Source: Cenococcum geophilum
Taxonomy: Eukaryota
Direction of reading: 5' to 3'
NCBI GenBank assembly: GCA_050273025.1
Contig: CP158635.1
Span: 4,278,001-4,342,000 of the forward strand
Length of the DNA stretch: 64,000 nucleotides
Part shown: piece after piece, positions 5,701 to 64,000 of the stretch
Layout: the number at the start of each line of letters is the position of its first letter
Position numbering within the stretch: position 1 is the first letter of the stretch
Program-made: the position numbers and the translations under genes
The notes under the pieces: model-generated
Told to the model about the DNA's origin: nothing
Seen by the model: only the letters and a program-made list of their open reading frames with translations
Database searches by the model: none

Positions 5701-8700
5701 CCCCTTTTGTAATATGGAGACGGTTAAATATAGAGATAATATCGAGCTTTATATAGTAACAAGCCTTACATAGTCGGTTTAGCGTCTCTTATATTAACGG
5801 GATTGGATATTAGTTCTTAACGGTAATAGTGTTAAAAGCTTGGTAGTTTACACAGAAGCGCAGACCGCCGCTAGGTTTCTTAATAAAGATCACTAGTATA
5901 GCTATAGGCGACGAGCTTGCTCTAATAAATCCTTTACTTAGGTTCTCGTCTAAATACTTTCGTAGTACTTAGAGTTTATTTTAGGATATCCTGTATAAGG
6001 GTCTAAATCCGGGCTGCTTTCCTTCTTTAAGTATAATCTTATAGTTATATAGTCGGTATTCTGGTAGCTTATTGGCTTCCTTTTATAAGAATACATCTAG
6101 GTAATAATAATACTCTATTAGTACCTTTATAGTAGGGTTAGTATGCTTCTTTAATACTAAGGCCTTCTTAATATCGGCTATCGTAACAGCAAAGATCGTA
6201 TACTTGGGTTTCTTAGCAAGTTACGCTAGCGGGGTAGCTCTAATTATACGGATATCTAGGGTGCCGAGCTCGCTCGGATTGTCTATAGTTTCTTATTTAG
6301 GTTTAGATTCGGTATTAGGTACGGAGTCAGTATTAGATTTAGGTTCGGGTTCTTTAAAAATCCTTTTTATAGTGGAATACTAGTCCTTCTAGTATTTTCG
6401 TATATAGAGCTTAAGCTTTTACTTAGCTCGGGGTAGTATAGTACTTAGTAATAACTTATGGAATTTAGTAGAGTTTTTAGATCCTTAGTGGATGTTAGTA
6501 GAATTCTTATATCAGTGGAATTCAGTGGAATTCCTAGGTTAGTGGAATCTAGTAGATTCCTTGGGTATAGGGTAAACAGTCGTGGAAATTTTAGACTGGT
6601 GGATTATAGTAGATTTTTCGGATTTCAGTTCTAGGTCTAAGCAGCGAGTAGTAAGGCACTTCTGCTTACAATAGAAGGCGGTAAATAGAAGCTTAAGGTT
6701 GTCCTAATTAATAGTTACCTTATATAGCTTTATCCAGGGTTATCTAAGGATTACTAAGTAACCTAGGGTGGTAACAAAAAGTTTAATTAATTCTTCGTGG
6801 TTCAGGTATCGGAGTCTCAGGAATACTACGTAGGTAATATAGCCTAAGACGGTGCATTTACTATTAAATCCAAATATATTAATATACTAGTTAAGGGGGG
6901 TTAGGGTAAAACCATTATCTTACGCAAAGATCTTATTAATAAATCCTATACCGCTAGCTCCTATGTTAATTAGGATTTAAGCATTAGCCTATTAACCATT
7001 CTGCCAAAGACGGCAGTTAATAGTTATGCTATGGTCCTAAGAGTCGGAGTTCGTGACGTTAAATATGTTTAATGAGATCCTATAGTAGAGCTGTCCTAAA
7101 GAGCGACTTAGCTCTAGGACCTTCCTTTTAGAGGCGATTGGGGTGGGGTTCTTATAGGGCGTCGGCTATAGCTTTATCCTTATAAATAGTGCTTATTAGA
7201 TGCAGGACTGGAACTAGGTAGAGATTAGGGACGGTAACTAAAAGATTAATACGGTAAACGGCTGCTAGTGTTAGCCGTTTGTAATTCGTATTTAGGCATA
7301 GGGACGGAGTAGTGGTTAGAGAGATAAAAGCTACTTCCACATTTAAAGCAGAGGCCTAGCTTAATGCGTTGTTCTTATTTAGAGGACCCTAGTAGGGCGT
7401 ACCCTAGGGTCCTAGTGTTAATATCTATAGCGTTAGGGTGCTTAGGCTAAGATAATAACTTAATAAACGTTTATAGAGTTGCCGTATTATATTATAGAGC
7501 GGGCTTTAGTGTCAGGCGTAGTATATCATTATATTATTTGTTAATAACGTTTACGCAGGCATTAAGGGCTCCTAATAGGTCTACGCCTATTAGGGAGGTT
7601 TTCAGTTTAGGGCTTAGGGATTTAATAAGGCTATTAATTAGTGCGGAGTCATTCCAGCTTATTTCCTTTATGTAACGGTTAAATTCGGAGAAGTATACTA
7701 GGAAACTTTTCGTTCCTTAAGTTATATAGTTTATCTTTCTTTAAGCAGTAGCTTAACAGTTTAGGTTACTATACGTAGCTTTAAGAAGTATAACTAGGCT
7801 TTACACTAAGTTTAGCTAAAGCGGTTTAATAAGGTCAGCTATATCTCCTCCTAGTTAACTTAGGGCGTAATAGAGTCGGTTAGCTTTAGTTAGGTAACGG
7901 TTAGCGTTACTAGTTAGCTTATTTTTAAGCTGGCTTAGAAATAATTAGAGCTCTCGTTATTTACTAGTAAATACTAGGGGATCTAGTAGTTATTCGGATT
8001 GTTTTAGTATAGTAGTTAGCTTAGGGTAAGTGGCTACTATAGGTTTAGGGCTCGCGTTCCGCGTGTTTATCTCCAGAGATAGCGTTTAGTCTTAAGGTTC
8101 TAGCGTAGGCATTTTAAGGGCGCGGACTTCTTCTTAAAGGTCCTTAATTAATTGCTAGTATCGTGCTTCTTATTTAGCTTATTATTGGTTTAAAGTAACT
8201 TAGTTTTGTTTAAGGGCGTCTATAAAAGACTTTTATATCCCTACCAATTATTCTTAGAGTGCGGATATAATGCCGGCGGCCGTTATAGGGGCTTTGGGTT
8301 CGTTCTGCATATTAACGGTAATATAGATAGTTAACGCAACGTAGTATCACGGAGTAAGTATAAGCGACGATAATATATAGCAAGGTAGATATTATTAAGC
8401 TATATATATAAACTGTATAAGAAGGTCAAGACGTTATATAAGGAAAGAAGGTAGGGAAATGGGAAGAAAGGGCATATATTGTTAACTTAGTTGCTTAGTT
8501 AACACGTATATAGGCAGAATAGGGTTTAGGTTATAGTCCTAGCAGAACTTGGTAGAATTCAGTAAAACTTAGCAGAATATGGCAGAATGCCGTAAATTAC
8601 CGTTAGATTGCCATTAGATTGCCATTAAATTACTATTTCGCGGTTGGTCTCTAATTGCTAAGTCGGTAGAAACAGGTAGACGTGTATAAGGTGTTATGGG

Positions 8701-8714
8701 GGTGTCCTATAATA
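2750..8714 (-). mobile_element. Gypsy-B: Ty3/Gypsy LTR retrotransposon inserted in the 3' LTR of Gypsy-A1
   Basis: 370-bp LTRs at 2750-3119 and 8345-8714 with internal 11-bp tandem units. TSD TTAAG/CTAAG (C>T variant; empty site visible at ~16205). PPT at 3120-3135. Minus-strand RT AYIDDILIY (~5534-5560), RNase H, integrase and chromodomain-like end (~3140-3340). Confidence 0.93.
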
Positions 8715-9073
8715 CTAAGGGTCCTTAAATACATAACCGTACTTCTATAAAATCCTTCTTATACATAATATACGTCTTATATATAAGGTATATAAGTTTC
8801 TTTTATTCCTCTTATTTAATATATAGCATATTATATAACCTTACTTACTATTCCTTATTATATGGTTTTACCGGCTCTATTTTAGACTATGCCTAAATTA
8901 ACTAACTAGCTTCTTCTAACTCCTCTCCTAGTAGTTATAATATTGTACTTAAAGCGTCTATAATACTATCTCCCTCCTCTCTATCTTTATCCTTAAAGAT
9001 TCTAAATATCTCTAAGTTATTTACTAGAGGTATAATATCCGTCTAATTAATTTAGTTAATATTATTGCTTATT

Positions 9074-9760
9074 ATACCTAAAGTAATTTCTTCTTTACAC
9101 GCCCAACGTCGTGCTCGCACTATTACCGCAATATTATCCCTTAGTAAGATTATACCGTCTCCATATTCTTATTATTTAAAAGAGGGGTTAGTTTATATTA
9201 CGTTGGCGAACCTATCTTTATAATAACCATCCTCTTACTTAAAGTATACTAAAGCGAATATTTATTTATCCTACGACGTTCACTTTACCTCTAATGCTAA
9301 ATATACGCGACCTATTATTCTTAATGGTCATCTAGTTCCCTAATTAATTTATCTTAGGGTCTCATATTTAATCTACTGCTATATAGCTAGATAGTAAACT
9401 ATCTTAAGCCCTTATTAAGTTAAAACGTTCTTAAAATGCGGAATAAAAGGCCCTAGATACTCGTATCGCGGCATCTGCTCATTTACTCCGTCTTAAAAAG
9501 GTTTATAAGAAGGTTTGTTTTAAGGAGTAGAAACTTATAAAATAGGGTTTATAGAAACTTAATAATAAAAGAACGGATTCTCTTCTAATAGAGAAGGAAA
9601 TAAATTTAAGTAGTTTGGCAACTGCTCTTCCTAAGTCCCTCTTAGGTAACTTATTCTTTAGTAATCCTTCTTTTTTAATACTGCCTAACCTAATCTCTTC
9701 CGATACTCCTATACCTTTCCTATAGCGTTCTTTAAATTTTTTAGTAGCTCTTAGGTAGTC
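9074..9760 (+). pseudogene. Antisense accessory gene of Gypsy-A1: six-Cys zinc-cluster-like domain, intron, coiled coil (RIP-damaged)
   Basis: In-frame ATA (RIPed ATG) at 9074. TAY codons spaced C-x2-C-x6-C-x13-C-x2-C-x8-C at 9164-9274. Predicted intron 9303-9357, then a heptad-like helix. 3' end approximate. Confidence 0.65.
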
Positions 9761-12700
9761 TTAGTATAACCTATCTACTTAACCTTATACTATATTTTAT
9801 TGTTAATATCCTTATAAATAATAATCTTTAAAACTTACTATTTATCTTTTTCTTATCCTCTATACGTGTCTACTTTGTAAACTAGTAGCTTAATATTCCC
9901 GTATACTGGCTCTAGCATTACAATGTATTATATAGAGTAGATCTTTATTTTGGCTAGTAGGTTTAACTTAAACGTAACTAGTAAAATTTCCTATGTAATT
10001 TTAAAAGGTCCTAGTCTAACGTAGTCTAACTTCTTACTTAGTCATTAACTCTTAAAATTTTTGTATAGTAGCTATACTTTATCTCCCTTCTTAAGATCTG
10101 GTCCCTTAGATCTCTTAGCATTATAGTACTTTTTTTATTCTCTCTTATACTTCTTTTACTAATTCTATAAGGTCTATATAAAGATTTATTAACGTCTTTA
10201 TTCTTTCTTTAGCTATACTATTTATTTTCTTTACTTACTATAGTAATAATAATATTCTTAGCTTATATCTATAATTTACCTTAAATAGTAATATGCCTAT
10301 TCCTTCTTAAGGTGTTATATTGTATATAAACTATATAACTAATAGTAACGATACCTAATTATTCTATATATAATTAATATAGTATCTTAGATACTACTCT
10401 AGTATCTAATTTAATCTTTCCGTCTAACCGTCTATCTGCGGATAATATACGGTAGAAGTTACTGCTCTAACTCCTTATTTTGCTAAGAATACCTCCTAGA
10501 ATACTGCTATAAATCTTAGATCTTTATCCAATATAATCTTATTTAATGCTCTATATTTTATAAATACTTCTTTAATATAGATTTTAGCGATATCTTCCGC
10601 TAATATTTCTTCCATATATGCTATAAAGTATCCCTACTTTATAAGCTTGTCTACTATTACTAAGATTATATTATAATTCTATCTAGTAATAGGGTTTCTT
10701 AACTTTAGCAACTTAATAATAAAGTCCTATAATATGACCTCCTATAGTCTCTCTAGTATTTTAATAGGTTATAGCCCTTTATATAGCTTATGCCTTATTA
10801 GTTTATTTCTTTAGCAATCTAGACACTTCTTTATAACCTTTCGCGTTAAGCCCTAGATTCTATTAATAATATACTCCTCTTAGAGTCTTAATACTAAGCC
10901 CATAGCTCTATTATATCCTTAAGTTAATCCCTTATAAAAGTCCTTTATAAATTACTCCGCTATGCTTCTTAGGATATACTTAGCTTCTTAGTTTTTATAT
11001 ATATCCGTCTATAGATCTTCTAGCTATACTTTTAGAATTTTCTATACCTAAAAGCTTTTTAGTATCTTATAAACTCTTTCTAGTTCTTCTTAAGTTGCTA
11101 TAATTTTTAGATAATTATACCTAATTAATCCGTCTGTATCTTTTTATAGTAAAGCCCCTAATAGCTTTTTATTATTTTATAGTTTAGCTTTTCGACTTAG
11201 AGCATCTACTTATATATTATCTATACCTTTAGTATACTAAATCTTAAAATGGTATTCTATAAGCATCTTTACCCATCTAACCTATCTTTAGTTAAGTTCT
11301 TTTATTATTAGGAACCCCATTAGGCTCTTATAATCTATCTTAACTATAAATAGTTTTTCTATACCTTATAAGAATACTCTCTATTTCTTTAGTGCTGTAA
11401 CTATACCTAATAACTCCTTATTATAGATGTTATAGTTTAACTCTAGTAGTATTATCTTTCAACTATAGTATGCCACTAGGTGCTATCTATCTTAATATTT
11501 TTATATAAAGTATGCCCCTAGTATATAGTCTAATATATCTGTTTCTATAACCGTCTTTAGTCCTAGTTAATAGATCTTAAGAACTAGCTCCTAGGTAAAT
11601 AACTCTTTAACTTTCTTAAAGAGTTTTTACTATTTCTCTTCTTATACCCATAGTTTCTCTTTCCTTATTAATTGCATAAATAGTTTAATATTCTTTAACC
11701 ACTACGCTATAAACCTTTTACAGTAATTATAAAACCATAAAAACAATCTTAATTACGTAACGTTCTCTAGTTCTTACTAATTCACTATAGCCTTAATCTT
11801 CTTTAGATCTATACTAAGTTAGCCTAGTTTAATAATAAATCTAACAAAATTAGTCTTCCTAGTAAAGAACTCGCATTTCTTAATTGCTACTAGCATCTAT
11901 TCTTCCTATAGTCTCTTTAAAACCTATTTAACGTATTCCCCGTAGTCTTCCTTAGTTATTAAGTAGATAATAATATTATTAAGGTATACTATAATAAATT
12001 TATCTAAGTGTTCTCCTAATATATTATTAATACGCTTTTAAAACGTTGCTAGTACGTTTATAAGCCTAAATTATATAACTAATAGTTTATATAGTCCTTC
12101 CTTTAACCTAAAGGCTGCCTTCTATTTATTGCCTTCCTTAATTCTAATCTAGTAGTACGCCCACCTTAGATCTATCTTTATAAAGATTTGCGCATTACCT
12201 ATCCTGTTTTAGATTTCGCTAATTAAGGGTAAAGAATACCTATCCTTTCTAGTAATACTGTTTAACTATCTATAGTTAATATATAGCCGTAATTTACTAT
12301 TCTTTTTTGGTATAAATAGTACTAGATAACCTGCTAATAACTGCGATAGTCTAATATATCCTTTTTGTAGGTTTTCCTAGACAAACTCTTTTAATACTCT
12401 ACCCTCTTCTTTAGTAAGCTTATAAATTAGAAAGAACCTTAGACTTATTCCCAGTTCTAATTCTATCTTATAGTCCTATACTATATACTTTAACAGCTTT
12501 TTACTTTTTAGTAACTATAGTTTCTTGCCGTACTTATAATATCTTTTTAGTATATAACTTAGTCCTTTTTCTATCTCTTTATAGGTCGCTCCTACTTAGT
12601 ACTATACTAACTTAGCTTATTATCGCAATTTATAGCGTTAAGTATCTTTAATATTGACCTAACCTATAATCTAATCGATTTTTAAATTATATTCCTGTAA

Positions 12701-15700
12701 CTAAGGCATTCCTAGTACTGCCTTATCCCGTCCTAATAGTAGGATATTAAAAGATATCTCGGTCCGTCTTCCTTTAATAGTTATTTAAATTGGTCCTATT
12801 TTAAGATTAATAATCCCTCCTCCGTAGGTTATTGGGTCTCCTAAAATTGTAACTAATAGGTAAGGTTACTTCTTCTATCTATACGGTAGCCCTATTCTCT
12901 TAACTACTATTAGTAAGATATAGTTCCTTATTACTCCACTATCTACTAATATTTTAAACTGTTAATCTTGCTATTTAACTTATAAATTTAGGTGTTGTCC
13001 TTAAATTCCTTTAAGAGTCTAAGGCTCTACTACTAGCTCCCTCTAGTTCTGTGGGCCTTTACTTTTCCTAACTATTAGCTACTTAATCCTGTTTATACTT
13101 AGTCCGTCTTTAGCTAATACTTAATTCGCTTTTTGTCCTTAATATACTATAGATACGTATTCTCTAGGCATTCCCACCACTATTATCTATCTAGGCATTC
13201 TTCCGTAAGGAATCTTTTTGGTTAAAGTATTAAGTTACCTAACTCCTAAACTTTTACTAGATGCTAGCTATGTATATACTTAGCGTTTTAATACTTCTAT
13301 TCTTCTGCTAACTAATATATTCTTATAGAGTATTTCCAATACTTACCTTTTGGTGCTTAGTGTATATTATATATATCGTCCACATATACAATCTATGCTA
13401 ATGTATAGTATGCTTAGTGCTTTAGGTTAACTCTTAGCTCGTCTTTATCCTTAAGTTTAAACCTCTCTCGTGTTAATCTAAACGTTATAACTTTATTTAT
13501 AGGTACTAAAATACATCTCTTGCTTCTCTAGTCCTTTAAACGCTCCTTTAGATCCTTTAATGTTATAATTAAGGCTCCCTTAATGTGACTTATCGCTTTT
13601 TTTGTAATTGGGTGGTCTTGGATAACTTTCTTATCTAACTATATATAGAAATCTTCCCACTTATCATTGTGCCTTTGCCTATACCACTTTTAGTATAGCT
13701 GCTAGAGTATATATGGCTCGTCCGTAAGGAAGTATCTTCTTATTACTATATCGTAATAGCCTTTAGTATATCGTTCCTTAAACCTAGTTAGAATCCCTAG
13801 ATCCTCTTCTTATTCCAGTTTAATAAGCTACTTAGCTCTTAGTATACCTGTTCTAAGCCTATTAGTAATTCTTTATACTAGCGCTCTGTCCCTTATATGT
13901 CCCAATATACTAGATCTCTTATCTAGTTTCTGCTCTTACTATGAGGTAATTCTTGCCCTAAATTCCTCTATGGTTTCTTTTTTTTCGCGTCTTATAAGTA
14001 GATCCTTAAAGTTTCCTTACTTCTTAATCTCAGTATTAATATTTCGATCTTTAGGCTAAACACTGCGTTCCCCTAGTAAGTCTTCTAGGTCTATATACCT
14101 GTCTCCCAGTCTAGTTACTATTTGTATTATAGATTCTCTAATCTATAAAGAAGCCTCTTGCCTCTTATTTATAGGTGTCCTTATTTATACTCTAAATTCT
14201 TAACCCTTTTAGATTTATAATCCTGAGCTTGCTTTTGTCTTAAGCTTTACTCCAGCCTTAGTCTAACTAGGCTTTCTTAGTATTCTTATCTCGTCTTAAA
14301 AATCTTAAATCTTACTCATCTTGTCTTAAAAGTCTTATACCTGTAGGAAACTCTATCCCGAGCTTATTCGTATATCTTTAAACTAAGCTACTACTCTACT
14401 CCATTAGTTATTGTCCGTTATAGGTCCTTAAGCTTGCCTTATCTCGTCTTAAGAATCTTAAGCCTTTAGCCTTTTGCCTTTATTAAGTGCCGAAATAGTT
14501 CGCTGCCCTACTTCTCTTACGTTTCGCGAGGTAATAGATATTATATCTAGTAGGGTCTTAATCCCTACTAATATTTCCTATTCCGTAGTAGAATTATCCT
14601 CTTCCTCTATTATATTATCTCTGAGGTCTACGTACTCCTAGTAAGCCGCTTTCGTTGCCTTATTATTATAAAATGTTTCACCTATATTAAAGTTATCGTC
14701 CTTAATATCCGATCTACGAACTAGTTTATTAGTTCCTTTATATTCCGCTAAATATAGCTCCTATAGCTAATAGCTTGCGCTATACTTAGCGTCCTTATAA
14801 ATTTAGTATACGTTGTTATAACAAAACGCGAAACTTCTAATTAAATACTCTTTTGTTCCTCGCAGCATATTATCGTCCCTCTATACGTATATATCGTTTA
14901 CTAGTCTCGTTCCTTTTACTATATAGTAACTCTAACCACTCTTATAGTCTCTAATATAATAACCCTATTTTCCGTAATTTATATAAGCTCCTTCTTTAAA
15001 CCATTTTTCTTGCTATAGAGTCCGCCTAAATATCTTCTACTATTAAAATCCCTAATTTAGCCTCTGCTCCTTAGACCTTTAATTACTTAATCCTTATCCT
15101 CTAGGTTTCTACGGTTTCTTACTCTATCCCTTATAGGCTTCTTTAGTACTACTTAGGTCTATTAGCTCTGCGCTATACTATAGTTTTTAACTTAGCTTTA
15201 GTCGTTATATATTCTACGCCTTATACAACTATAAAACTCTATCCTAGCCTCTCTTAGCCTATTCCCTTTAGTAGATCCGATTATTAATCTTAATTACTTA
15301 ATCTATTAGTTCCCTTAGGGTATCCGCATCTCCTATTAGGATAATCACGTCCTAGACTTTAGCCTTAAGTCCTTATTTGTACTATACTATAAGCGCCCTA
15401 TTATTCCACTTAACTTATATCGCTAACGTTTAGAACTGCGTTATGTACTTAATTGCTAAGGTTCGTTACGTAATATTTTAGAGTTTCCTCTTTACCATAG
15501 TTACTATCTCCGGGTCTCTAAATATCTATATTAATTATTTCGCGAACCCTTTCTAGCTTACGAATATAAATCGTACGTCTTAATTAATAGTTATTATGCT
15601 ATTCGCTTATATCTCCGTAAGGTAAGACTTAAACTACTTAAGTGCCCTCCCTAATAGGAATAGTCCCGTATACGCTATTTGATCTATAGGTGTTAATAGC

Positions 15701-18700
15701 TTAACTCCTTCTTATATAACCTTAAAGTATATCTGCGTAAGGAATCCTTTAAGCTTTAATCTTTCTCCTAAGTACCTTTTAATTAATAGTAGCTTAATCT
15801 TTGCTACTCCTATTCTATTAATCCTATTTTCTAACGTCGCATTATTTTCTATTAGCTAGTTAACTATCTCTTATAGTTGTCCGACTGTTATAGGTTGCTA
15901 TAAGTTAATATCTGCCATACTAGTGTCGTTACCTAACCTTAAAGTAGTTGCCGCCGTCAATAGCGTCGTAGCTGGTGCTTTTGGTGGCATATTATTCAAC
16001 TTTCTGTATTTAATACCGTAACTAGGTAGTAATTATATAACGGAACCTTATAGTAAGAACTATAATGGGCTTGTTAATGGGCTAGGTATATAGGTAATAC
16101 AAATTAAAGTTAACGACGAATAATAACTGGTAGAGTAGTTGCCTAATAGATTAACTCTAATTATATTCTAAAAATCACTATAAGGAAGGAACTATCTAGG
16201 TAGGGATTAAGGGTCCTTAAATACACAACCATACTCCTATAAAATCCTTCTTATATATAATATACGTAAGATATATAAGATACGTAAGTTTCTTTCGTTC
16301 CTCTCGTTTAATACATAGCATATTATATAACCTCGCTTACTATTCCTCGTCACATAATTCTACCGGCTCTATTCTGGACCGTGCCTAGATTAACTAACTA
16401 GCTTCTTCCGACTCCTCTCCTAGTAGTCGTAACATTGTACTTAAAGCGTCCGTAACATAGGATCCCATTGCTTCGCAATTTAATGACTTTTAGACTCCAC
16501 TAACTAGACCTACGTCCCTACTGCAGCCTGTAATATAACCCCTACCTCCTCTATCTTAATCTCAAATCGGAGGCAGTTTAAAATTGCTTATAGAGCTTAT
16601 GAAGCTCTACTCGGATTAGGAGAAGAAGTTTAGTAGGGAATTATATAATATTCTTAATTTAAAACTATGTATCTTCTATAAGTATTACTAGAAGGTAGGA
16701 ATAGAGTCTAATTAATACTATAACGCCTATTCTGTTATGCTTAAGGGCCAAGCTAGTACCTTCTATTATAATTATTTAGCAGGAAAAGAATACGATTTTA
16801 ACCGTATAATATATATATTAAGATACTACTTTAAAATAGAAGAGAATAAGTAGCAGTATATGTTAGAATAGAGAGAGACTACCTTTCTAAGGATTATTGC
16901 TATAAACCTAGGTATCCCTTAACTTAATTGTCTTTAAAAGCTCTTTAATTAACTTTAGATAATTTAGCGTGGTTTATCTAAATTATATTAAGAGGATTTT
17001 AGCCTACGTAATTAAGTTATTAGCGTATGCTAAGGCGTTAAAGAATACAATCTTGCTCTCTTTAATCCTGTAAATACTTACGAAGGAGTGTATACTTAAT
17101 TAAGATCTTTTATTAGCACCGCTTTACGCTCTTAAAAAGTATAGCAATTTAACGCCTAACTTTAACCTACTTTGATTGACCCGCCCAACTAATATAATTA
17201 TAACTAGACTAATTAAATATATAGTGGCCGTGGTAGGTAATACAATAGAGGGTATAACCAATAACTATAAGGTAAAGGTGGAGGTTCTTATAGAGGTTTA
17301 TTTTAAAGTAATTGCTAAAAGAAGTATTATATTTATAAGAAACCAAATTACTAGTTAACTAGGCATTCTCTTAATAAACAAAAGGAGGTATATAATAAGT
17401 TTCGCTAGAGTATAAGAAATATTAGAAATTATAAGGTTACTGCGGCCTACTTTTAAAGCTTCCTGGTTTAATATAAAGGCGTAAAAGATCTTAAGGGTAA
17501 GGTTAATGAGGCCGAATAGCTCCTTATAGATATAGAAATTAAGGACTACTTATTTAACCAATACTTTACTAAGTATGGTAAGGTAGATAGTATATAAACC
17601 GTTACTGTTTTTAATAACTAATCTACGCTCCATTCTATTATAAAGTTAGATATTTTTAATAAGCTAAAGGAGAGCTTTGCGTTCTCCTTTAACGACAGAT
17701 ACTTAGTAAATATCTTTTATAGTATTATGCCAGATACTAAAGCCGCAGAAGTATCTATAGTAGGAGAACCTTAAGTTCGAGCCCTTTAGCAGCTTAATAG
17801 CTCTATTTAGATTAACTATTTAACGGTAGGCTAATATACGATTTGTTTTAGCAAGGGTACTATAATCTCTTTTAGCATAATTAGGGTCTAAACCCTCTTA
17901 GGGTATATTACTTTCCACGTTATTCCTATAAATACTCCGTTTCTATTTTACATTAGAGATATAAATAAATTAGGCGTTAAGCTTAATAACTTTAAGAATA
18001 TACTTATATAGGGAGATAATCGGGTACCTATTATACGCAAGTAGGGTTACCCTTAGTTGCTCCTTTATTAACTAAAAAAGAGTATTACTTAAAGCCACCT
18101 AACTAAGTTAGAGTTACGTTAACTACACTATTATTTTAGCTACCTATCCATTTATTAATTACTTAGGGCTCTTTAATAAGTAGGCTATAAAGTTAAGGTT
18201 AAGGTAATTAAGCATCTTATAAAGTACTGCTATTACTACTAAATAAACTAAAAGTCCCCTAGCCGATTTAAGTTTACCCTTAAGAATAACTACGACTTTA
18301 ACTTCTATATTATTGTTAATGTTATATATCTTAGCGGTAAGCTAGTACTCTAAGTTATTAACTTCTTAACCTCCTTTTAAGCCGTACGATTCTTAAAGGA
18401 TATATTAGCAAGGAACGCATAGAATACCCTTTAATTATACTAGATTAATGTCTACCTAGGGCCCTTTAACCAAATCGTCTATAATATAGGAAAGAACTTC
18501 TTATCTTTAAAGTTTCGATAATAGATAAAAGTAATGGCAATTAAGGTTAAGAAAGTCCCTATTAAGGCATATAATAGTATTAGAAAAGTAGAGCGATATT
18601 ATATACTATTACGCCGCGTATATAAAATTATCTCTTTAAAACTAGAGGATACTAGCGAAGAACTTACCTTATAAATAGCTATTAAAGCCGTTAATAATTC

Positions 18701-23909: not shown

Positions 23910-26103
23910 TATTTGTATCAACTTAATAATATAAGTGAGTTATATCCAGGGGCACGAAATACGTATAGTATTGTATGCTCTTTTGGATAGTAGTAACTTG
24001 TTCTTCTAATCGTACATAAATAAGTAGAATTTAAGGGGTTTCCTAAGCTCGCTTAGCTCACGTAATTGCGTCTATAAATTCCCATCCGAACTTATTCAGA
24101 CACTAGCGGTACTTAAAAAATAAAACCACTTATATATAGCCTCCGTAATTGCTTTAATAGAACCGTAAAATATAAAAGAAATATATAAGAAATAAAACTA
24201 TAAAACATAAAAGAAATATATAGGAAATTCTTCCGTATAATAGGTGCTATAATTATACACTAGTAGTACTTAACAATAGACCCACTTATATATAGCCCCC
24301 GTAATTGCTTTAGTAAAACTATAAAATATAAAAATAAAAAAAAATAAGAATAAAACTATAAAAGACAAAAGAAATACATAGGGAATCCCTTCCGAGTTGC
24401 CCTCTAGGCTGCCTTCTAAACGGTGCCTTAAGCTGGCCGTAAGTCCTGCTTACGGTCCGTAAAATGAACCATAGAGCGTTTAAGGACTCTATATAGCTTT
24501 TCGGCTAACAGGTGGTCGAAACGGCAGTACAGGCGGTAGATTTTGGTACTACATAGTTTACTTACGCTCCTTAGCCATAGGCTTTGCCTTATGTGGCTCG
24601 TTTTACTCCGCCTTTATAAAGGTCTCGTTTTAGGGAAGGCAAGGGTCGTATATAGGTTAGTCCATATACAGCTGCATATTAGGGTCGGTGTTGGCAGTAC
24701 TAGGGTAAAGATACTAGGCGGGAGGAAGACTAGGTAAGGTCGGAGCAGTTGCTAAGGGGAGGGTAGAGGCGGTTGCCACAGGTAGTAATTACTAGGTAGG
24801 TTACGGAGGTTTATACAAGCTTAGCTGCCGTAGCTCCTTAGCTTTAGTTAATAAAGAGGGTAAAGCTAGCAGAGCTTGTACGGACGGAGCTTATACGGAC
24901 GGAGCTTATATAGACGGAGCTTGCGCGAACGGAGCTTATGCGGACAGAGCTTACATAGACGGAGCTTGCGCGGACAGAGCTTATGCGGACGGAGCTTACA
25001 CGGATAGGGCTTACATAGGCGGAGTTTATGCGGACAGAGTTTGTAATATTATATATTGCAAAAGTCCTACTAGTGTTCCTTTAGGTAATAGTGGATTTAT
25101 ATATATTAAAGGTCCTATAAGACTAGAGATCCTATTAAGTTTAAAGAAGGTAAAGAATCCGCTGGTTTTAATATAATCTAAAATCTACTCTTTAGTCTAT
25201 TTCGTTTAGTTTTCCTTATATAGTATATTGTATAGAGACCGTGTAATAGTAACTCGCCTATTCTTTTTAAGCCATACACCTTAGTTACATAAGAGGGTTT
25301 ATAGGTTGTGGGTAGCTATAAGGTTATAAGTCTTAAAAATAGCTTCTATAAAGTCCGTAAAGTCTTCCTTATATTATTCCTATAGATTATTATTTAGAAG
25401 CTTAAAGTGTCCGTATTTAAGGATTTTAAAATTAATATAGTTGTTAACGCCGTTTATAGACGTAAGGTTGACTCCCTAACTCTACTTCTTTTAACCTTTA
25501 TTAATTTGCTTGCTTATATCTACTATATTATATAGCATAGTATATCTATATAAGCTGTAACGGGTTAAGGGGAGCTTATAGCGGGTAGAGGTCTTATAAT
25601 AGTCCGTAAAATCAATTAACGGGTCCGTAATAGTTTAAAAGGTCTTATAATGGTCCATAAAGGCGATTAATAGGTCTATAATAGTTTATAGGAGGGTAAG
25701 AGGTTCTATAAAGGTCTATATTCGCGTTTATAAACTTTTAGTAAACTATATTAAGACTTAAATAAGTATATAGAGATGGTGATATAGTCTATAATCCCCA
25801 ACTTCCAACCTTCTAGTAGGTCGTACTAGTATTAAACGGGTGGTCGCTGTTATATATTGCTTAAGGGGAGATATTAAGTAATTGCTAATCTATACGCGCT
25901 CACTAATTAGTGTTTATATTAACTTAATAATATAAATAAGTTATATCCAGGGGCACGAAATACGTATAGTATTATATGCTCTTTTAGATGGTGGTGGCTT
26001 GTTCTTCTAATTGTATATAAATAGGTGGAATTTAAGGGGTTTCCTAAGCTCGCTTAGCTCACGTAATTACGTCCATAAATTCCCGTCTAAACTTATTTAG
26101 ATA
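23910..26103 (-). mobile_element. Non-autonomous 2.2-kb LTR element related to Copia-B, no pol, chimeric LTRs
   Basis: 193-bp direct LTRs at 23910-24102 and 25911-26103, TSD CTACC, palindrome CACTAATTAGTG at 25901-25912. Internal 25110-25910 and 24260-24480 are reverse-complement homologous to Copia-B 27666-28615 and ~33170-33344. Confidence 0.9.
24870..25043 (-). repeat. 15-bp tandem array (GAGCTTRYRCGGACG), about 11 units, read as (QAPSV/A)n in the gag remnant
   Basis: Directly visible tandem units; the 15-bp period preserves frame. Confidence 0.85.
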
Positions 26104-28231
26104 CTACCTAATAGTAAAATAGGCCTAAGAGAGAGCGAAATCTAACTATTATTTAATATTATAATAGAGGAAACTAAAAGATATTAGTATTATAGAATTT
26201 GGTAAGATCTAGAATATAATATACTAGAGTAAATAAAGGTAATATATTATAAGCGAGAATTTAATTATATGCCTTGCAAACTTTAAAATTATAATTATAA
26301 GCGTATACTAGTTCTATAAGATAATATATCTAATATAACATTATTAAAATTAAAATCTTTATCCTCTTTAATATTTATAGATATAGTATTAGCTTTTCCT
26401 TTACTAGTATAGGCCTATTTTCTTAACTTTTCTAGCTCTTTAAAACTTATAGAACTATAGCAGATTATATTAGCGATATATCCACATTGGAGCCGTAATA
26501 AATTTATAAATTTATACTTTTCTATAAAAGCCATTCTTTTGGCAATAGATATAGTTCTCAATATATATATAATTCTATACTAATAATACGCCTTCCACGC
26601 TTTAAAATTAAAAATATTAATTCTCTGTCTATTATAATTATTATTATAATACTATATTACGGATATAAAAGATATACTAATATTAAAATAGTAGCTAGAA
26701 GGCTTAATTAATGCCTAAAATTATTCGCTTAAAAATAAGAGTATTTAATAGCGGTTATATTCTTTATAATTATAGAGAATATATTACGGTCTATTTTACT
26801 ATAATATAGATTTATTCTAGATGCAATATATATATATTACTTATGTTAACACCAGTTTATAACTTTATAATTATTATTATACTTTTCTATAACCGCAAAT
26901 ATTAGAATATAAATATAATATAGATTAATTAGGGATATAATATCTCTATACCTTTAATTACGTCTAAGATTTCGTAGTATTGCTTATAGCCTCTATAATT
27001 AAAGCCATATATTACCTAATACTATCTTAGCCTATATTTCCGGCTCTAATAACTTAATAAATACTATAAAGAATATAAATTTAGTAATATATAATTATAG
27101 ACTTTATATAGTCCTACTAGGTCTATAAGGGGTTAATATCTACTAGGTAAAGGCCAAGCCCTAATATATTTTAGTAGTGTCTTTAATATATACGTATTAT
27201 AAAATACCTTTTACCTATACCCTATCTATATCTATAAGAGCTATATAAAATCCACGTTTATAAATATAACTCTAATAAGTTAGATAGCTGTAATTCTTAT
27301 ATAAGCAGAATATAGTATAGAAAAGTTATTAATAGATTTTTACTAATTAGCCTATGGCTTAGTTTACAAAAACTCTTATTAATATAATAACTATAACCTT
27401 ATTAGAATAAAGATATAACCATAATATAACCAGGTTATATAATACTATATAATTATAGCACCTAGTATACCAAACGCGTATTTACGCGTTTGGTGTACTA
27501 ACTACCTACTTATAACTAATTAGGGGGGAAGGCGCGTTAGTATATAGACTACGTAGTCTACCTTAATAGAATTGAAAGTCATTACTATCTAAAAGAGTAT
27601 ACAATACTATATGTATTTCGTGCCCCTGGATATAACTTACTTATATTATTAAATTAATATAAATACTAATTAGTAAGCGCGCACAGATTAGTAATTACTT
27701 AACACCTCCCCCAAGCAATATATAATAGCGACTACCCGTTTATATCCTAGTATAACCTACTAGAAGGTTAGAAGTTAGGGATTATAAACTATATCACTAT
27801 CTCTATATACTTATTTAAGTCTTAGTATAGTTTACTAGAAGTTTATAAACGTAAATATAGACCTTTATAGAACTCCTTACCCTCCTATAAACTATTATAG
27901 ACCTATTAATTGCCTTTACAGACTATTATAAGACCTCTTAAACTATTACGGACCTATTAATTAATTTTACGGACCGTTATAAGACCTCCTTTACCCCGCT
28001 ATAAGCTATTACTACCCGTTACAGCTTATATAGATATACTACGCTATATAATATAGTAGATATAAGTAAGCAAATTAATAAAGGTTAAAAGAAGTAGAGT
28101 TAGGGAGTTAACCTTATATCTATAACCGGCGTTAACGACTATATTAATTTTAGAATCTTTAAATACGGACACTTTAAGCTTTTAAATAATAATCTATAGG
28201 AATAATATAAGGAAGACTTTGCGGACTTTAT

Positions 28232-28379
28232 CCCTTACAACGTCGAGGTCCTACTGGAGGTGGTCCGTGCGGGAACACCAGAATCAAAAGTACGCGTATA
28301 GTCACGGAGCCTTGATCCTATTGATTCTATTGGCCAGCCCTTATCGATAAGAATAGGGCACATTTCAACGTTGCAAGGG
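28232..28379. mobile_element. 148-bp MITE inserted in Copia-B gag
   Basis: Terminal inverted repeats CCCTTACAACGTCGA / TCAACGTTGCAAGGG. Absent from the homologous site of the non-autonomous element (~25341-25362). Nearly free of RIP. Confidence 0.9.
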
Positions 28380-31300
28380 ATAGAAGCTATCTTTAAGGCT
28401 TATAACCTTATAGCTACCTATAACCTATAAACCCTCTTATATTACTAAGGTGTATAGGTTAAAAAGGATAAATAAGTTACTATTATATGATCTCTATATA
28501 ATATATTATATAAGGAGGACTAACCAGAATAAACTAAAGAGTAGATTTTAGATTATATTAAAACTAGCAGACTCTTTGCCTCTTTTAAACTTAATAGGAT
28601 CTCCGGTCTTATAGATAACCTATTTAACTAAATTTATCCTACAGACTAAAAAGATCTTAGAATTAATTTTATAGGCTAAAGTATACCTAGTACTTAAGTT
28701 ATAGACTATAATACCCCCGTAAACTAAAGTACGGACTAAAACCCTCCCATTGCTTAAGTTATAGATCCGTAAACCTTTTAAATAAAGATCTATAGTAAGG
28801 AGCTAGCCAACCTAGCTAAGCTCTATACCAATAAATCTAAATATAGCGGTAAAAACAGCAACTTTAACTTTAAACTGACTATCTTTATGGACCATTATTA
28901 GAAGGCTAATATTCCTAAATAAGAGTTTAGCTAAGCCTACTCTACTATACTGCGCGGCCTAGCCCTTAACTATTATTACACTAACCTTAAAAGCAACCCC
29001 CTTAGTGTTCCCTTTAATAAGCTATACGAGGCTATATATAACTACTTTAAAGGGCTAGAATATAAGCGTAATATTCTAACCTAATGGAATGCAATTAAGT
29101 TATGGACTGTAATTAATAAGAATACCAAAAAATCGACTACAGAGTGCCTGTAAATTCTTATTAAAGACCTTCGGCACCTATAGTACGGCCTTAATATTAA
29201 GCTTTAAACAGACAACTTCCTGTATAATAAACTTATTACAGCTTATTAAGAAGTAGAGCCCTATAAATATACTTATTATAAGCCTACAGACACCTTAACT
29301 AGCCTTATTAATAATTTACAGTCCTCTATTATAATGTATAAAGTCTTAAACCCGCCAGGTAGTACTTAAGCCTTTATTATAGACCTATAAAACCCATAAA
29401 CTAACTTAGATACCTACTTTATGGACCGCCGCTACTACTAGCAGTACCTATACCAACTAAGTCCTACACGCAACCCCCGTAGCAACTCCTATATAAAAGT
29501 ATACCTCTATAAACTAACTAACTAGAAGTGCTTTATATGCGGTAAGGAAGGATATTAATCTATAAGGTATACCTAGGAAGAGCGTAATAAGTCTAAGAAG
29601 AGATTTAACAGCTAGATTAACTAGTTTATCTTAGATTATAAAGGAGAGGAAGTAGAGGAGTCTCTTAATGAGTTAATAGAAGCCCTTATAATTAATTTAA
29701 ACTTAGATACTTAGGAATAGGAGACTTTAGAGATATTTCTAACTACTTTTAGACCTTTTATGGACGGCTAAGCCTTTAATATTACGACCGTATTAGCCAA
29801 CCGCTCCTTTATATACTTAATTACACCCAAAAACTAGCCCGTAAGTACACCTGTTAGACCTATTATAGACATTATAGACCGTAAATAGGACCTATTTGTA
29901 TATATTACTACAAAACGCTATACCCCCAAAGAATTCTACAGCGTTATAATTAATATAGGTGCCTCTAAGAAGTCTATTATAGGTTATAAACAATACCTTA
30001 TATATAAGACTATTATAAATAATAATATAGACATTAATACTATATAAACTAGAGCCATAAACGTCTAATTTGGCATCGGCTTAACCGCATTAATTAGATT
30101 AGTTATAGTTAAGACTCTAACTAGCCTAGTTAACTTCCACGTAGTAAAAGCGGACACCCCTTTCCTACTCTATTTTGCGGACATGGACAGGTTATAGGTT
30201 TACTATAATAATATTACAGACACTCTAATTAGCCCCATAATTGCCCTAGGAAGTAAGTATATTACCCTACCAATTATATAACGATTTAGACACCCGTTCC
30301 TTATATAGGGAGAAACTTTACAAACCTATATTTAGGAATCTCTTAACTATAACCCATACTACCTCACCAATATGGAAATCCACCGCCTATACCGCTGTTT
30401 CGGCCACCTATTAGCCAAAAAGCTATATAGAGTCCTTAAACGCTCTAGACACGACGACGTTAATAAAAAGGCAATTAACTACCTAACTAAATACTGCTCC
30501 TTCTGCCAGAAATACAGACGTTCCCTAGGCTAATTTAAGTTTACTCTTTATAAAGACCTTAATTTTAACCACTTAGTGTATATAGACATTATGTATATTA
30601 ATAGTAGCCTAGTATTACACATAATTAACAAGGCAACCCGCTATTAAGCCGCCCGTTGGTTATAAAATATATCCACAAAATATACTTAGGATATTTTATA
30701 AACCTGCTAGATTGATATATATATTAGACCCCCTAAGTATATTACCTTTAATACTAGTAGGAACTTTATTAGCAAGAAATTCTAATAGTACGCTATGGCT
30801 ATAGCTATTTTAATAAAAGCCGTTCTAGTTAAGGCGTATTAGTCTGTTAGGCTTATTAAGTAAGCTTACCTAGCTCTATAAAGAGCTTACTAGATTATTA
30901 TAGACGAGTATAAGGATATTTAAAAGGAACTAGCTTTACAGATAGCTATAAAAGCTATTAATAACACTACTAGCCTTAACGGACTAGTACCTACCCTCTT
31001 AGTTTATAGAGCCTATTTAAGGATAGGCAAACTAGACCCTCCTACCCCGTCTATTATAGATTAAGCAGCTATAATACGGAAGGCAATAGCTGAAATACTT
31101 AAGTTACGGGCCAAACAAACCGTTAATAGCGCTCTACACTACTATAACAGACCTAACACAACCTTAGTATATAACCTCCCGCTTAACTCTAAAGTCCTTA
31201 TATAGCGTAAAAGCGGCAATTAGACTGGACCTCACCATTTACTAGCTATAGAAGGCGAAACGTACTGTATATAACTCTCTAGCGAACTAATTAGCTTTAA

Positions 31301-33488: not shown

Positions 33489-36400
33489 TATTACGGACGC
33501 TTTAAGTACGATGTTACGACTACTTGGAGAAGAAATGGAAGAAGCTAGTTGGTTAATTTAGGCACGGTTTAGGATGGAGCCAATAGAACCATATGACAAG
33601 GAATAGTAACTAAGGTCATATAATGTGCTATATATTAAACAAGAGGAACGAGAGGAACTTACGTACCTTACGTATAAGACATACATTACGTATAAGAAGG
33701 ATTTCATAGGAGTACGGTTGTATATTTAAGGACCCTTAGTCCCTACCTAAATAGTTCCTTCCTTATAGTAATTCTCAGAATACAATTAAAGTTAATCTAT
33801 TAGGCAACCACTCCACCAGTTATTATTACGTTGTTAACTTTTATACTTGTATTTCCTATATACCTAGCCCAATAATAAGCCTACCATAGTTCTTGCTACA
33901 AGGTTCCGTTATATAATTACTACCTAGTTACGGTATTAATATAAGAAGTTAAATAATATGCCACCAAAAGCAGCCACCACGACGCTATTAACGGTAGCAA
34001 CTACTTTAAGGACAGGAGGTAATACCAGTATAGCAGATACTAACTCACAGCAACCTATGACGGTTAGATAGCTATAGGAAATAGTTAACTAGCTAACAGC
34101 TAATAATATAGTATTAGAAGAAAGACTTAATAGGATAGGAGCAGCAAAGATTAAGCTACTATTAATTAAGAGATTTATAGGAGAGAGGTTAAAGCTCAAA
34201 GGATTCCTTATGTAGATGCACTTTAAGGTCTCATAAGAGGGAGTAAAGTTATCTATACCCGTGGATCGGATAGCCTACGCAGGACTATTCTTATTAGGAA
34301 AAGCACTTAAGTGGTTTAAATTTTACCTTATAAAGATATAGGTAAACGGAATAACGACCACTAACTAAGACGTGCGATTTATGTTTTTAAGTTAGGAAGG
34401 ATTTATAGAATGACTTACGTAGATATTTAGAGACCCGGAAGAAATAACTATAGTAAAAAGAAAACTCTAGAACCTCGTGCAACGAACTTTAGTAATTAAG
34501 TATATAACACAGTTCTAGACACTAGCAATATAAGTAAAGTGGAATAATAGGGCGCTTAAGGCATAGTATAAATAGGGACTTAAGGATAAAGTTTAGGACG
34601 CGATTATCCTAATAGAAGATGCGGACACCCTAAGGGAACTAATAGATTAGGCGATTAAGATTAATAATTAGATCTACTAAAGGGAATAGGCTAAGAAAGG
34701 CTAGGATAGAGTTCTATAGTTGTATAAGGCGTAGAGTACGCAATAACAAAAGCTAAGTTAGAAATTATAGTATGGCGCAGAGCTAATAGACCTAAGTGGT
34801 ACTAAAGAAGCCTATAAGAGATGGAGTAAACTATAGAAACCTAGAGGATAAGAATTAGGCGATTAAAGGTCTAAGGAGCAGAGGCTAAATTAGGGATCTT
34901 ATTAGCAGAAGATATTCAGGCGGACTCTATAGTAAGAGAAATAGTTTAAAAAAGGAGCTTGCATAAATTGCGGAAAATAGGGTTATTATATTAGAGACTA
35001 TAGAAGTGGGCAGAGTTACTACGCAGTAAAGGGTACGAGACTAGTAGACGATATATACGTATAAAGGGACGATAATATGCTGCGAGGAATAAAAAAATGT
35101 TTAATTAGAAGTTTTACGTTTTGTTATAACAACGTATACTAAATTTATAAAGATGCTAAGTACGGCGCAAGCTATTAGCTATAAGAGCTAGCACCTATAG
35201 GATATAAAGGAACCAATAAACTAGTTTGTAGATTAGATATTAAGGATAATAAATTTAACCTAGGCGAAACATTCCGTAACGATAAGGTAATAAGGGCCGC
35301 TTACTAGGAGCGAGTAGACCTTAGAGATGTTATACTAAAGGTAGAGGATAATTCCACTATAGAATAGGAAATATTAGTAGGGATTAAAACCCTACTAGAC
35401 ATAATGTCTATCGCTTTACGAGATATAAGAGAAGTAGGATAGTAAACCACTTTGGCACTTAATAAAGGCAAAAGGCTAAAGGCTTAAGATTCTTATAGCG
35501 AGATAAGAGATAACTAAGATTCTTAAAACGAGATAAGGTAAGCTTAAGGACCTATAATAGACAATAACTGATAGAGTAGAGTAGTAGCTTAGTTTAAAGA
35601 TATACGAATAAGCTTAGGATAGAAGTTCCTATAAATATAAGACTCTTAAGACAAGATAAGTAAGATTTAAGACTTTTAAGACGAGATAAGAACACTAAGT
35701 AAGCCTAGTTAGACTAAGACTGGAGCTAAGCTTAAGTTAAAAGCAAGCTTAGGATTAAAGAACCTAAGGGGTTAAGAATTCGGAGTATAAATTAGGACAC
35801 CTATAGACAAGAGGTAAGGAGCTTCTTTATAAATTAGAGAATCTACGGTATAAATAGTAATTAGACTAGGAGACAAATATATAGACCTAGAGGATTTACT
35901 AGTTAAATAAAGTGTTTAAACTAAAGATTAAAAAATTAATACCAGGATTAAGAAGCAAGACGACTTTAAGGATTAGAACACAAGACGCAAACTAAAAGAA
36001 ACTATAGAAGAGTTTAGGCAAAAAATCATTATATAGTAAGAACAGAAACTAGATAAAAGATCTAGTATATTAGGATGTATAAAGGATAGAGTACTAGTAT
36101 AAAGAATTATTAATAGACCGAGAGTAGGCATACTAAGAGCTAAGTAGCTTACTAAACTGGAAGATAAAGAGGCTTTAGGGATTCTAACTAGGTTTAAGGA
36201 ATGATATATAAAGGGCTATTATAATACAGCAATAAGAAGATACTTCCTTACGGATAGACCGTATATACTTTAGCAGCTATACCAAAAGTAGTATAGGCAA
36301 AGGCATAATAATAAGTAGGAAGATTTCTATATATGGTTGGATAAAAAAGTTATTTAAAACCACCTAATTATAGAAAAGGCTATAACGCATATTAAAGGAG

Positions 36401-51649: not shown

Positions 51650-52016
51650 ACGAGAAATAGGCCAGATTTTCCAAGGAAAATTTCCTCCTTACCGACTTAC
51701 AGCCGGCAATTCGGTCCTTGGAGAAATTTAGCCTATTTCTCACGCCTGCGGCGGGCCTCCGTCCCTTTAAACTAAGTGCTGCTATACTACTATCCTCTAC
51801 TACCTACTACTGCCCTACTACTATAGAATTTATATAGTTACCTCGTGGTAACGTAAGGCTGCCTTTATATAATAATCGCGTGATATAGATTTATATAGTT
51901 AATTACATAACGTATATTAATAATAGCTATTTACGTTGTTATTGTTATTGTTATCTTCTTCCTTAAGTAATAGCACCACTATTACTACCACTATTAGTAC
52001 TGCTGCTGCTGCTGCT

Positions 52017-63495: not shown

Positions 63496-63569
63496 GTTAC
63501 CTTGATTCGATCGATCGATTGAATCGTTTATCGTGTTTGCTGGCTGGTCGTTTGAACGGTTGTTGTGTG

Positions 63570-63960
63570 GCTCTGGCGACGGTCGTGTGGCGATGACGAC
63601 GGTCGTCTGGCTCTGACGGTTGTCTAGCTCTGGTGACGGTTATCTGGCTCCGGCGACGGCCGTCTAGCTCTGACGACGGTCGTCCAGCTCTGACGACGGT
63701 CGTCCAGCTCTGGCGACGGTCATCTGGCTCCGGCGACGGTCGTCTAGCTCTAACGATGGTCATCTGGCTCCGGCGACGGTCGTCTAGCTCTGACGACGGT
63801 CGTCTGGCTCTGACGGTCGTCTAGCTCTGGCGACGGTTATCTGGCTCCGGCGACGGTCGTCTAGCTCCGGCGACGGTCGTCTAGCTCTGACGACGGTCGT
63901 CTGGCTCTGACGGTTGTCTAGCTCTGGCGACGGTCGTCTGGCTCCGGCGACGGTTGTCTG
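63570..63960. repeat. 21-bp GC-rich minisatellite (GCTCYGRCGACGGTCGTCTRG-like) with interspersed 18-bp variants
   Basis: About 19 contiguous units with no unique spacers. Confidence 0.95.
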
Positions 63961-64000
63961 CTGGCTATCGTTCTGGTGTCTTCCTAGGTAGGGAGAATGT

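Follow-up and report, generated by a model that had tools for sequence, protein, structure and literature searches.

An LTR element in two inverted copies

The window, which is the whole 64-kb stretch of DNA analysed here, is AT-rich fungal DNA of the RIP type, with a GC fraction of 0.25–0.37 across most of its length. It holds two inverted copies, hereafter labelled A and B, of one LTR element. Translated with its stops ignored, copy A on the minus strand matches the Pfam families RVT_1 (E 7e-14), RT_RNaseH (E 3.5e-17) and RT_RNaseH_2 (E 4.8e-16), with a further match to the integrase SH3 domain (SH3_Tf2-1) that lies under the cut-off (E 0.004); the three plus frames of the same copy match zero families. 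Reverse transcriptase, RNase H and integrase in this order, a C-terminal chromodomain recognised by eye, and LTR pairs place the element among the Ty3/Gypsy chromoviruses. Its main parts are as follows.

~8627–16457, minus strand: LTR element copy A, ~7.8 kb
33491–41353, plus strand: LTR element copy B, inverted relative to copy A, ~7.8 kb
8627–8965, minus strand: 3′ LTR of copy A, beginning TATTATAG.., versus TGTTACGG.. in the 5′ LTR
8966–8988, minus strand: polypurine tract of copy A, AAAGATAGAGAGGAGGGAGATAG as read directly on the minus strand
9684–9840, minus strand: chromodomain-like C-terminal part of pol, a motif found by eye from copy tallies, with its end at ~9690

The outer ~65–90 nt of the copy A 3′ LTR diverge from the other LTRs, and at the inner end the polypurine tract and the start of the LTR lie at ~8988–8965. 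From the minus-strand pol domains and the place of the polypurine tract and LTR it follows that the interval 9074–9760, read on the plus strand, is antisense to the element and lies between pol and the 3′ LTR, which is where a preliminary description of this DNA had placed an antisense gene. The chromodomain-like part of pol and this gene are arranged tail to tail. Beyond the chromodomain, the pol frame meets no common stop until 9493–9495, and it overlaps the last ~77 codons of the antisense gene.

Relatives from public collections

Relatives were drawn from public collections, and the copies were compared by column tallies together with one natural protein, P0266. A profile built from the two translated window copies found one relative among longer proteins; with that relative added, the profile matched 223 proteins at E ≤ 10 among 317 candidates, 120 of the 223 being listed, and these are short unnamed gene calls on RIPed copies. 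An exhaustive profile search returned 267 proteins at E ≤ 0.001, 150 of them listed. The full cysteine spacing described below is present in 217 of the 265 proteins collected; two of these (P0161 and P0180) have six cysteines and eight have five.

At the DNA level, the lightly mutated P0170 served as the query against metagenome contigs and yielded 80 loci, from which 62 full-length segments align to 8964–9900. All 62 are RIPed (GC 0.30–0.41). They belong to subfamilies with different indels, and all bear the gene at the same spot, with pol and the polypurine tract as neighbours. Counts out of 64 below refer to these 62 segments plus the two window copies, and counts out of 122 to the 120 listed database proteins plus the two window copies.

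The natural protein P0266 was the single protein from a word-based search with P0170 as the query at longer lengths, among 3114 candidates. It has 239 residues, is un-RIPed and has six cysteines; its 1423-nt contig may be RNA or DNA. Its sequence contains ..MPSCSRCAEKKLVCIAIAAPSGRQPSSCVECTKSNMRSSCNVRSVSDAEWSRVVASAAKLESEL.. and ends ..DNTPVPFP. In P0170 itself, the two frames are joined at a junction that is not GT-AG, with ~127 nt dropped between short direct repeats and the frame left open; the intron in its subfamily is ~130 nt (L004:2913-3113; L068:590-790). We considered GT-AG splicing as the source of the P0170 junction, which it does not explain.

Exons, introns and ends of the antisense gene

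The gene model that emerges from these comparisons has the following parts.

8966–9029, plus strand: upstream exon, probably 5′ UTR, colinear with intron-less natural sequences, which extend ~20 nt into the LTR
9030–9082, plus strand (40898–40950 in copy B): candidate upstream intron, intron A, 53 nt, possibly 54
9083–9302, plus strand: exon 1, whose final T opens a split Trp codon
9164–9274, plus strand: six-cysteine motif C-x2-C-x6-C-x13-C-x2-C-x8-C, with 6/6 codons TAY in copy A
9303–9357, plus strand: intron B, 55 nt, with donor AT in copy A and acceptor TAG
9358–9725, plus strand: exon 2, helical region and a tail rich in Asp, Ser and Phe, with eight RIP-type stops inside
40255–40828, minus strand: antisense gene of copy B from ATG to stop, with intact ATG, donor AT and eight in-frame stops

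The preliminary description had proposed a 55-nt intron that splits a Trp codon and had suggested looking for un-RIPed relatives. P0266 is such a relative, six-cysteine and intron-less, and its frames are joined at the predicted Trp. Residues 32–100 match the exon-1 frame of the window (E 8e-12), and residues 102–238 follow the exon-2 frame as far as its last sense codon (E 1e-17); Trp101, in the context ...SDAE-W-SRV..., falls at the junction of T (9302) with GG (9358–9359). The interval is present in both window copies, bounded by AT..AG, and its removal leaves TGG. Across the 64 DNA copies, the donor is GT in 18, AT in 45 and AC in 1, so that the predicted GT is recovered. The first reading of the donor as GTACGC needs amending, the ancestral form being probably GTGCGC, with G at 9305 in 23 of 64 copies. 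The acceptor AG at 9356–9357 is kept in 63 of 64 copies and the 55-nt length in 62 of 64, and a branch-like GTAAC lies at 9344–9348, 10 nt ahead of the acceptor.

A second, upstream intron is likely at 9030–9082, judged from aligned sequences, and its acceptor may sit one base further on. The interval begins with GT in 63 of 64 copies and is 53 nt long in 58 of 64, and 9081–9082 reads AG in 7 and AA in 57 of the 64. It is absent from P0266, which breaks at the same place, and from the assembled contigs of runs X22-24 described below. Neither L059 nor the window offers an in-frame GT-AG solution for intron A that keeps the upstream frame of P0266, and the upstream exon is therefore taken as probably untranslated.

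The start codon of the antisense gene may be at 9074 or at 9152. The codon at 9074 lies inside candidate intron A and is ATG in 7 and ATA in 57 of 64 copies; once intron A is removed, the first ATG is the one at 9152, which is ATG in 53 of 64 copies and ATA in copy A. The stretch between, 9083–9151, has coding-like periodicity (variable at 2/23 second versus 14/23 third positions), and many gene calls begin there.

At the other end, the stop at 9723–9725 is present in 64 of 64 copies (TAG in 63, TAA in 1) and has no CAG or TGG variant, and it is thus a true stop. Of the ten in-frame stops upstream of it in copy A, nine show CAR, CGG or TGG in other copies, the exception being 9405, where the tally gives no clear answer. 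Codon 9528, previously read as Gln, was Trp (TGG in 25 of 64). No stop is common to at least 95% of copies in the exon-1 frame from 9047 to 9394 or in the exon-2 frame from 9348 to 9722, and ten such stops occur in the third plus frame. With about ten stops, and with ATG and GT donor both lost in copy A, the two window copies are dead and would make no product.

Cysteines beneath the RIP mutations

In copy A, the codons at 9164, 9173, 9194, 9236, 9245 and 9272, in the frame of 9074, are all TAT or TAC. The preliminary description had read six TAY/TGY codons with one spacing in both copies (9074–9760, plus strand, and 40220–40906, minus strand) and a single surviving Cys codon among the 12, and we read the same: the spacing is there twice, and the one TGY codon is a TGT at the equivalent of 9173 in copy B (40805–40807). 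A further TGT close by, at 9170, goes back to an Arg codon. Of the 687 ungapped positions compared between the two copies, 93 differ, 88 of them by a transition.

Taken by itself, the [C/Y] pattern is mildly unusual and is weak evidence; it is the relatives that carry the claim. The bare spacing matches three times in the six frames of the window, once in each copy and once at 51983, and 100 Markov-1 resamples gave a mean of 0.08 matches and a maximum of 2. The match at 51983 was rejected as a third gene, as it lies in low-complexity DNA rich in TAT, TGC and CCN (51980–52110) and is a chance occurrence.

RIP changes G to A and C to T only, so that TGY can become TAY and the reverse cannot happen. 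Any TGY in a column that otherwise holds only Cys or Tyr codons thus marks an ancestral cysteine. Among the 122 protein-level copies, the columns C1–C6 hold Cys in 44, 55, 10, 11, 67 and 39 copies and Tyr in 78, 66 (plus one Phe), 112, 111, 55 and 81 (plus one Leu), with no Arg or His at any of the six; columns of Arg origin (CGY-derived) in the same 122 sequences are mixtures of R, C, Y and H. In the DNA set of 64, TGY is found at C1 in 29, C2 in 62, C3 in 3, C4 in 27, C5 in 55 and C6 in 35, and every remaining codon is TAY. All six positions thereby recover TGY, as had been predicted for a multi-copy comparison, in 3 to 62 of 64 copies per position, the third cysteine being the rarest (TGY in 3/64 DNA copies and Cys in 10/122 protein-level copies).

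Coding-type conservation

Sites polymorphic for transversions are distributed over the codon positions of the antisense frame as 34/193 first, 20/193 second and 66/193 third (chi-square 35.1, p 2.4e-8, a value that overstates independence because the copies are related). In the introns and the upstream exon, the corresponding counts by phase are 5/58, 4/57 and 5/57 (p 0.93). Where the pol frame is also open, the variable phase is the third position of the antisense gene and not that of pol; from 9726 on, it switches to the third position of pol, and the coding signature of pol ends near 9723. The antisense frame is kept with coding-type conservation, seen as periodicity and a common stop, in 64 of 64 copies. 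The excess of third-position transversions, the invariant Cys columns, the intron phase and the common stop point, at the level of aligned sequences, to selection on a protein.

Character of the predicted protein

An AF2 model from 39 sequences contains one helix at residues 98–200, with pLDDT 93–98, that starts seven residues after C6. In the first 60 residues of the helix, a and d positions are 62–88% hydrophobic or Ala, against a background of 36–46%, a heptad-like enrichment. The C-terminal tail is rich in Asp, Ser and Phe in P0266. The Cys module is poorly modelled (pLDDT 48–72), and a model of the module alone is weak (pLDDT 67.7), strand-rich and unlike the full-length model.

The spacing C-x2-C-x6-C-x13-C-x2-C-x8-C is identical in the window, P0266, P0161 and P0180. 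For the Zn(II)2Cys6 family, PROSITE and Pfam give the range C-x2-C-x6-C-x5-12-C-x2-C-x6-8-C, and the 13-residue central loop here is one above it. Between C2 and C3, the basic residues differ by subfamily (KEGLV, EKKLV, LKGLV). The preliminary description had called the module Zn2Cys6-like; the part of this that stands is the six-cysteine spacing, which is ancestral, whereas family membership is not borne out by Pfam, in which P0266 scores 8.1 bits (E 4) against a Zn_clus (PF00172) gathering cut-off of 21. Zn_clus is nonetheless the sole family to match more than one of the 39 members (5/39 at E ≤ 10, best E 0.052). By sequence, PPR1 (1pyi) matches P0266 at E 4.4; a search of the PDB with the family profile gave 0 matches, Foldseek of the weak Cys-module model against the PDB gave nothing at E ≤ 0.001 and chance-level rows only, and Pfam on partly RIPed copies gave nothing useful. 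In the Atlas, the three closest clusters consist of Ascomycota proteins 161–204 residues long, and one of them bears the automatic name Zn(2)-C6 fungal-type domain-containing protein (score 0.90); an Atlas search with the Cys domain alone returned no Pfam family. In sum of layout and spacing, the module looks like a binuclear cluster, and on this likeness it may belong to Zn2Cys6.

Transcript evidence

No indexed RNA run was found to contain this stretch, and reads of four runs were aligned to the window at 80% likeness. Three of these, X22-24, for which the label of RNA is a guess, each gave one contig of 718–757 nt that lies on 9179–9302 and resumes at 9546 onward, with 209 letters between. 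The interval 9358–9545 is 188 nt long in 35 of 64 copies and 209 nt in 16 of 64; the 209 letters equal the second length class, so that the X22-24 contigs fit a copy of that class lacking the 55-nt intron, whereas an unspliced one would have 264. Before 9179, the contigs carry 181 letters, made up of 85 on 8945–9029 and 96 equal to 9083–9178, so that the 53 nt of 9030–9082 are missing from them as well.

From the RNA run X21, 63 reads aligned, 0/63 being at least 95% like the window copies. Throughout 8919–10232, all depth comes from pairs whose first mate lies on the minus strand; at the LTR end, most of it is the other way round. For a library of the common stranded type, this orientation would correspond to plus-strand RNA. 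The antisense reads and the 1423-nt contig of P0266 both extend well past the stop into pol.

Comparison with known systems

LTR retrotransposons are usually described as encoding gag-pol only. An antisense gene of Boty-like elements, brtn, was reportedly described by Zhao et al. in 2011 (Virology 417:248). Passages of three later papers present brtn of Boty, a fungal Gypsy element, as an extra antisense gene between pol and the 3′ LTR (PMC8365987, PMC7264820, PMC4227169), and a passage of another reports a Monilinia transcript that matches truncated Pol plus BRTN (PMC5987419). The strand and place are the same as those of the gene here, and the Monilinia transcript, as that passage gives it, fits an antisense transcript that runs into pol. 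The citing passages make no mention of cysteines, zinc or a coiled coil, and the likeness to the present gene is one of description. One variant is named brtn-106 in the passage that mentions it (PMC4227169); our guess is that 106 is a length, like that of the 105–108-residue unspliced frame here.

An antisense gene at this place is thus already published for Boty-like elements, and the gene reported here is of a known kind, an antisense ORF between pol and the 3′ LTR. New here are the nature of its product and a further intron that likely lies upstream. In the literature consulted, no antisense product of a fungal retrotransposon is described as a Cys-cluster and coiled-coil protein, and the 2011 brtn paper or supplementary files of other papers may hold one.

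Outside fungi, the plant LTR retrotransposons Grande, RIRE2, Retand and PvRetro13 have additional antisense ORFs, according to passages of a review (PMC7264820). In those passages, the plant ORFs, like the gene here, lie between pol and the 3′ LTR and are kept within a family; they belong to another kingdom, introns or zinc modules are not mentioned for them, and they are likened to the present gene by description.

On the protein side, the Zn(II)2Cys6 factors Gal4, Ppr1, Put3 and Hap1 (PF00172) share with the product here the C-x2-C-x6/8-C halves, a short linker, a heptad-like helix and an acidic tail. Unlike them, the present product has a 13-residue loop, a ~100-residue helix and Pfam matches below threshold, is without a middle homology region, has fewer than 200 residues and is borne by a retrotransposon rather than by the host. 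The Zn(II)2Cys6 family is confined to fungi, and its clusters bind two zinc ions and DNA sites of the CGG type. As for retroviruses, HBZ of HTLV-1 is a minus-strand regulator transcribed from the 3′ LTR, spliced, and equipped with a coiled-coil dimerising DNA-binding region of the bZIP kind. The outline is like that of the gene here, but HBZ has bZIP and not a Cys cluster and belongs to a human retrovirus, which makes the comparison an analogy only.

Interpretation

The finding is real, and the interpretation of the first reading is supported. We propose that the locus holds the RIP-killed relic of a third gene of a chromovirus-type Gypsy element, antisense and spliced, with a cysteine-and-helix product that we infer to be a zinc-cluster regulator; taken whole, this reading has in our estimate a probability of about 0.8. 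The gene lies antisense to gag-pol, with the pol chromodomain on one side and the polypurine tract on the other, and in live relatives it would be read from the 3′ LTR side towards pol, with removal of the 55-nt GT-AG intron and, most likely, of the 53-nt upstream intron too. The predicted product, of ~170–200 residues, begins with a short basic N-terminus and the six-cysteine module; a linker of ~7 residues leads to a ~100-residue helix, and the tail is acidic and hydrophobic. Its cysteines would hold two zinc ions as in Gal4-type clusters, its helix would pair two chains, and the protein may bind DNA, most likely the element's own LTR, and so tune transcription of the element; helix pairing and a regulatory role for the element are what we infer from this layout.

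The rival that we take most seriously, while giving it less than an even chance, accepts a real antisense gene and denies that its six cysteines form a DNA-binding cluster of the Gal4 type. They would make up a different module, based on zinc or disulphides, that sits on a long coiled coil and acts through contacts with protein or RNA; particle assembly, integration targeting and the countering of host silencing are examples. Every Zn2Cys6 family test falling under threshold would fit this, as would a ~100-residue helix far longer than the usual Gal4-type dimerisation coils and the variation of the C2–C3 basic residues among subfamilies (KEGLV, EKKLV, LKGLV). Gal4-type factors have a cluster, a linker, a short dimerisation coil and an acidic tail, and the order of parts here is the same, which argues against a different module, as do the two-fold C-x2-C-x6/8-C layout of binuclear clusters and the recurrence of Zn_clus as the one weak Pfam match (5/39). 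That the Tyr/Cys pattern and open frames arose by chance in AT-rich RIPed DNA, and never were a gene, has next to no probability and is in our view already refuted: Tyr codons are common in such DNA, a third exact-spacing match lies in low-complexity DNA at 51983 and 11 of the 12 window codons are Tyr, but the six columns hold C or Y only in 122 (bar one Phe and one Leu) and 64 copies, P0266 is an intact natural protein, codon-position periodicity reaches p 2.4e-8 and the stop at 9723 is common to 64 of 64 copies.

A functional unit made of antisense RNA, as a duplex or as small RNAs, with the reading frame incidental, would suit the reads and the P0266 contig that run well past the stop into pol, and regulatory antisense transcripts of transposable elements are described in fungi (PMC10648671). 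We consider it very unlikely, since a third-position transversion excess, invariant Cys columns, a kept intron phase and a common stop speak for the frame. A fragment of a host gene, captured by or nested in one element rather than belonging to the family, has in its favour the view, stated in passages of PMC7264820, that accessory ORFs of LTR elements began as captures, and nothing specific to this locus; with the gene at the same place in 62 of 62 full-length segments from 80 loci, across subfamilies, it is barely credible.

If the reading as a relic of a third gene is right, these fungal elements would carry a regulator of their own, a probable DNA-binding dimer encoded by a conserved, spliced antisense gene. 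This would matter for the ways in which they evade or invite control by the host, and for the origin of new members of the very large fungal Zn2Cys6 family. Complex retroviruses carry their own regulators. One may go further and suppose, as a speculation that we think unlikely, that a widespread clade of ascomycete chromoviruses consists of 'complex' retrotransposons, each with a miniature Gal4-like factor (zinc cluster, coiled coil and acidic activation tail) made from a doubly spliced antisense mRNA with its start in the 3′ LTR; the factor would bind the element's own LTR as a transcription switch or steer its landing. Were this so, fungi would have their own counterpart to the antisense regulators of complex retroviruses, from which new host Zn2Cys6 factors might arise. 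In practical terms, the comparison of many copies allows RIP-dead DNA to be read back reliably, and annotation pipelines that mask repeats miss the antisense gene, the relatives found here all being unnamed and mostly truncated gene calls.

Other repeats in the window

Directly outside the outer end of the copy A 3′ LTR, at 8600–8626, lies an 11-nt tandem unit (TAGATTGCCAT), un-mutated versions of which form loose ends of RNA reads and contigs at 8629–8638. A fifth LTR-like copy of the Gypsy family, 81–84% like the others and with no adjoining element, lies at 45486–45761 and is probably a solo LTR. The stretch 2573–3047 matches 16035–16214, inside copy A and the end of its 5′ LTR, and then 8343–8642, the flank of the copy A 3′ LTR; a third match lies at 61191–61490. 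The pattern suggests a rearranged copy or a further family of repeats. At 25115–25832 and 27744–28614, inverted repeats of ~700 nt, in three blocks that are 86–95% complementary, enclose a centre of ~1.9 kb and form either a further mobile element or an inverted duplication. A tandem array of a 20-nt repeat, in ~15 or more copies, occupies 63535–63989 at the right end of the window.
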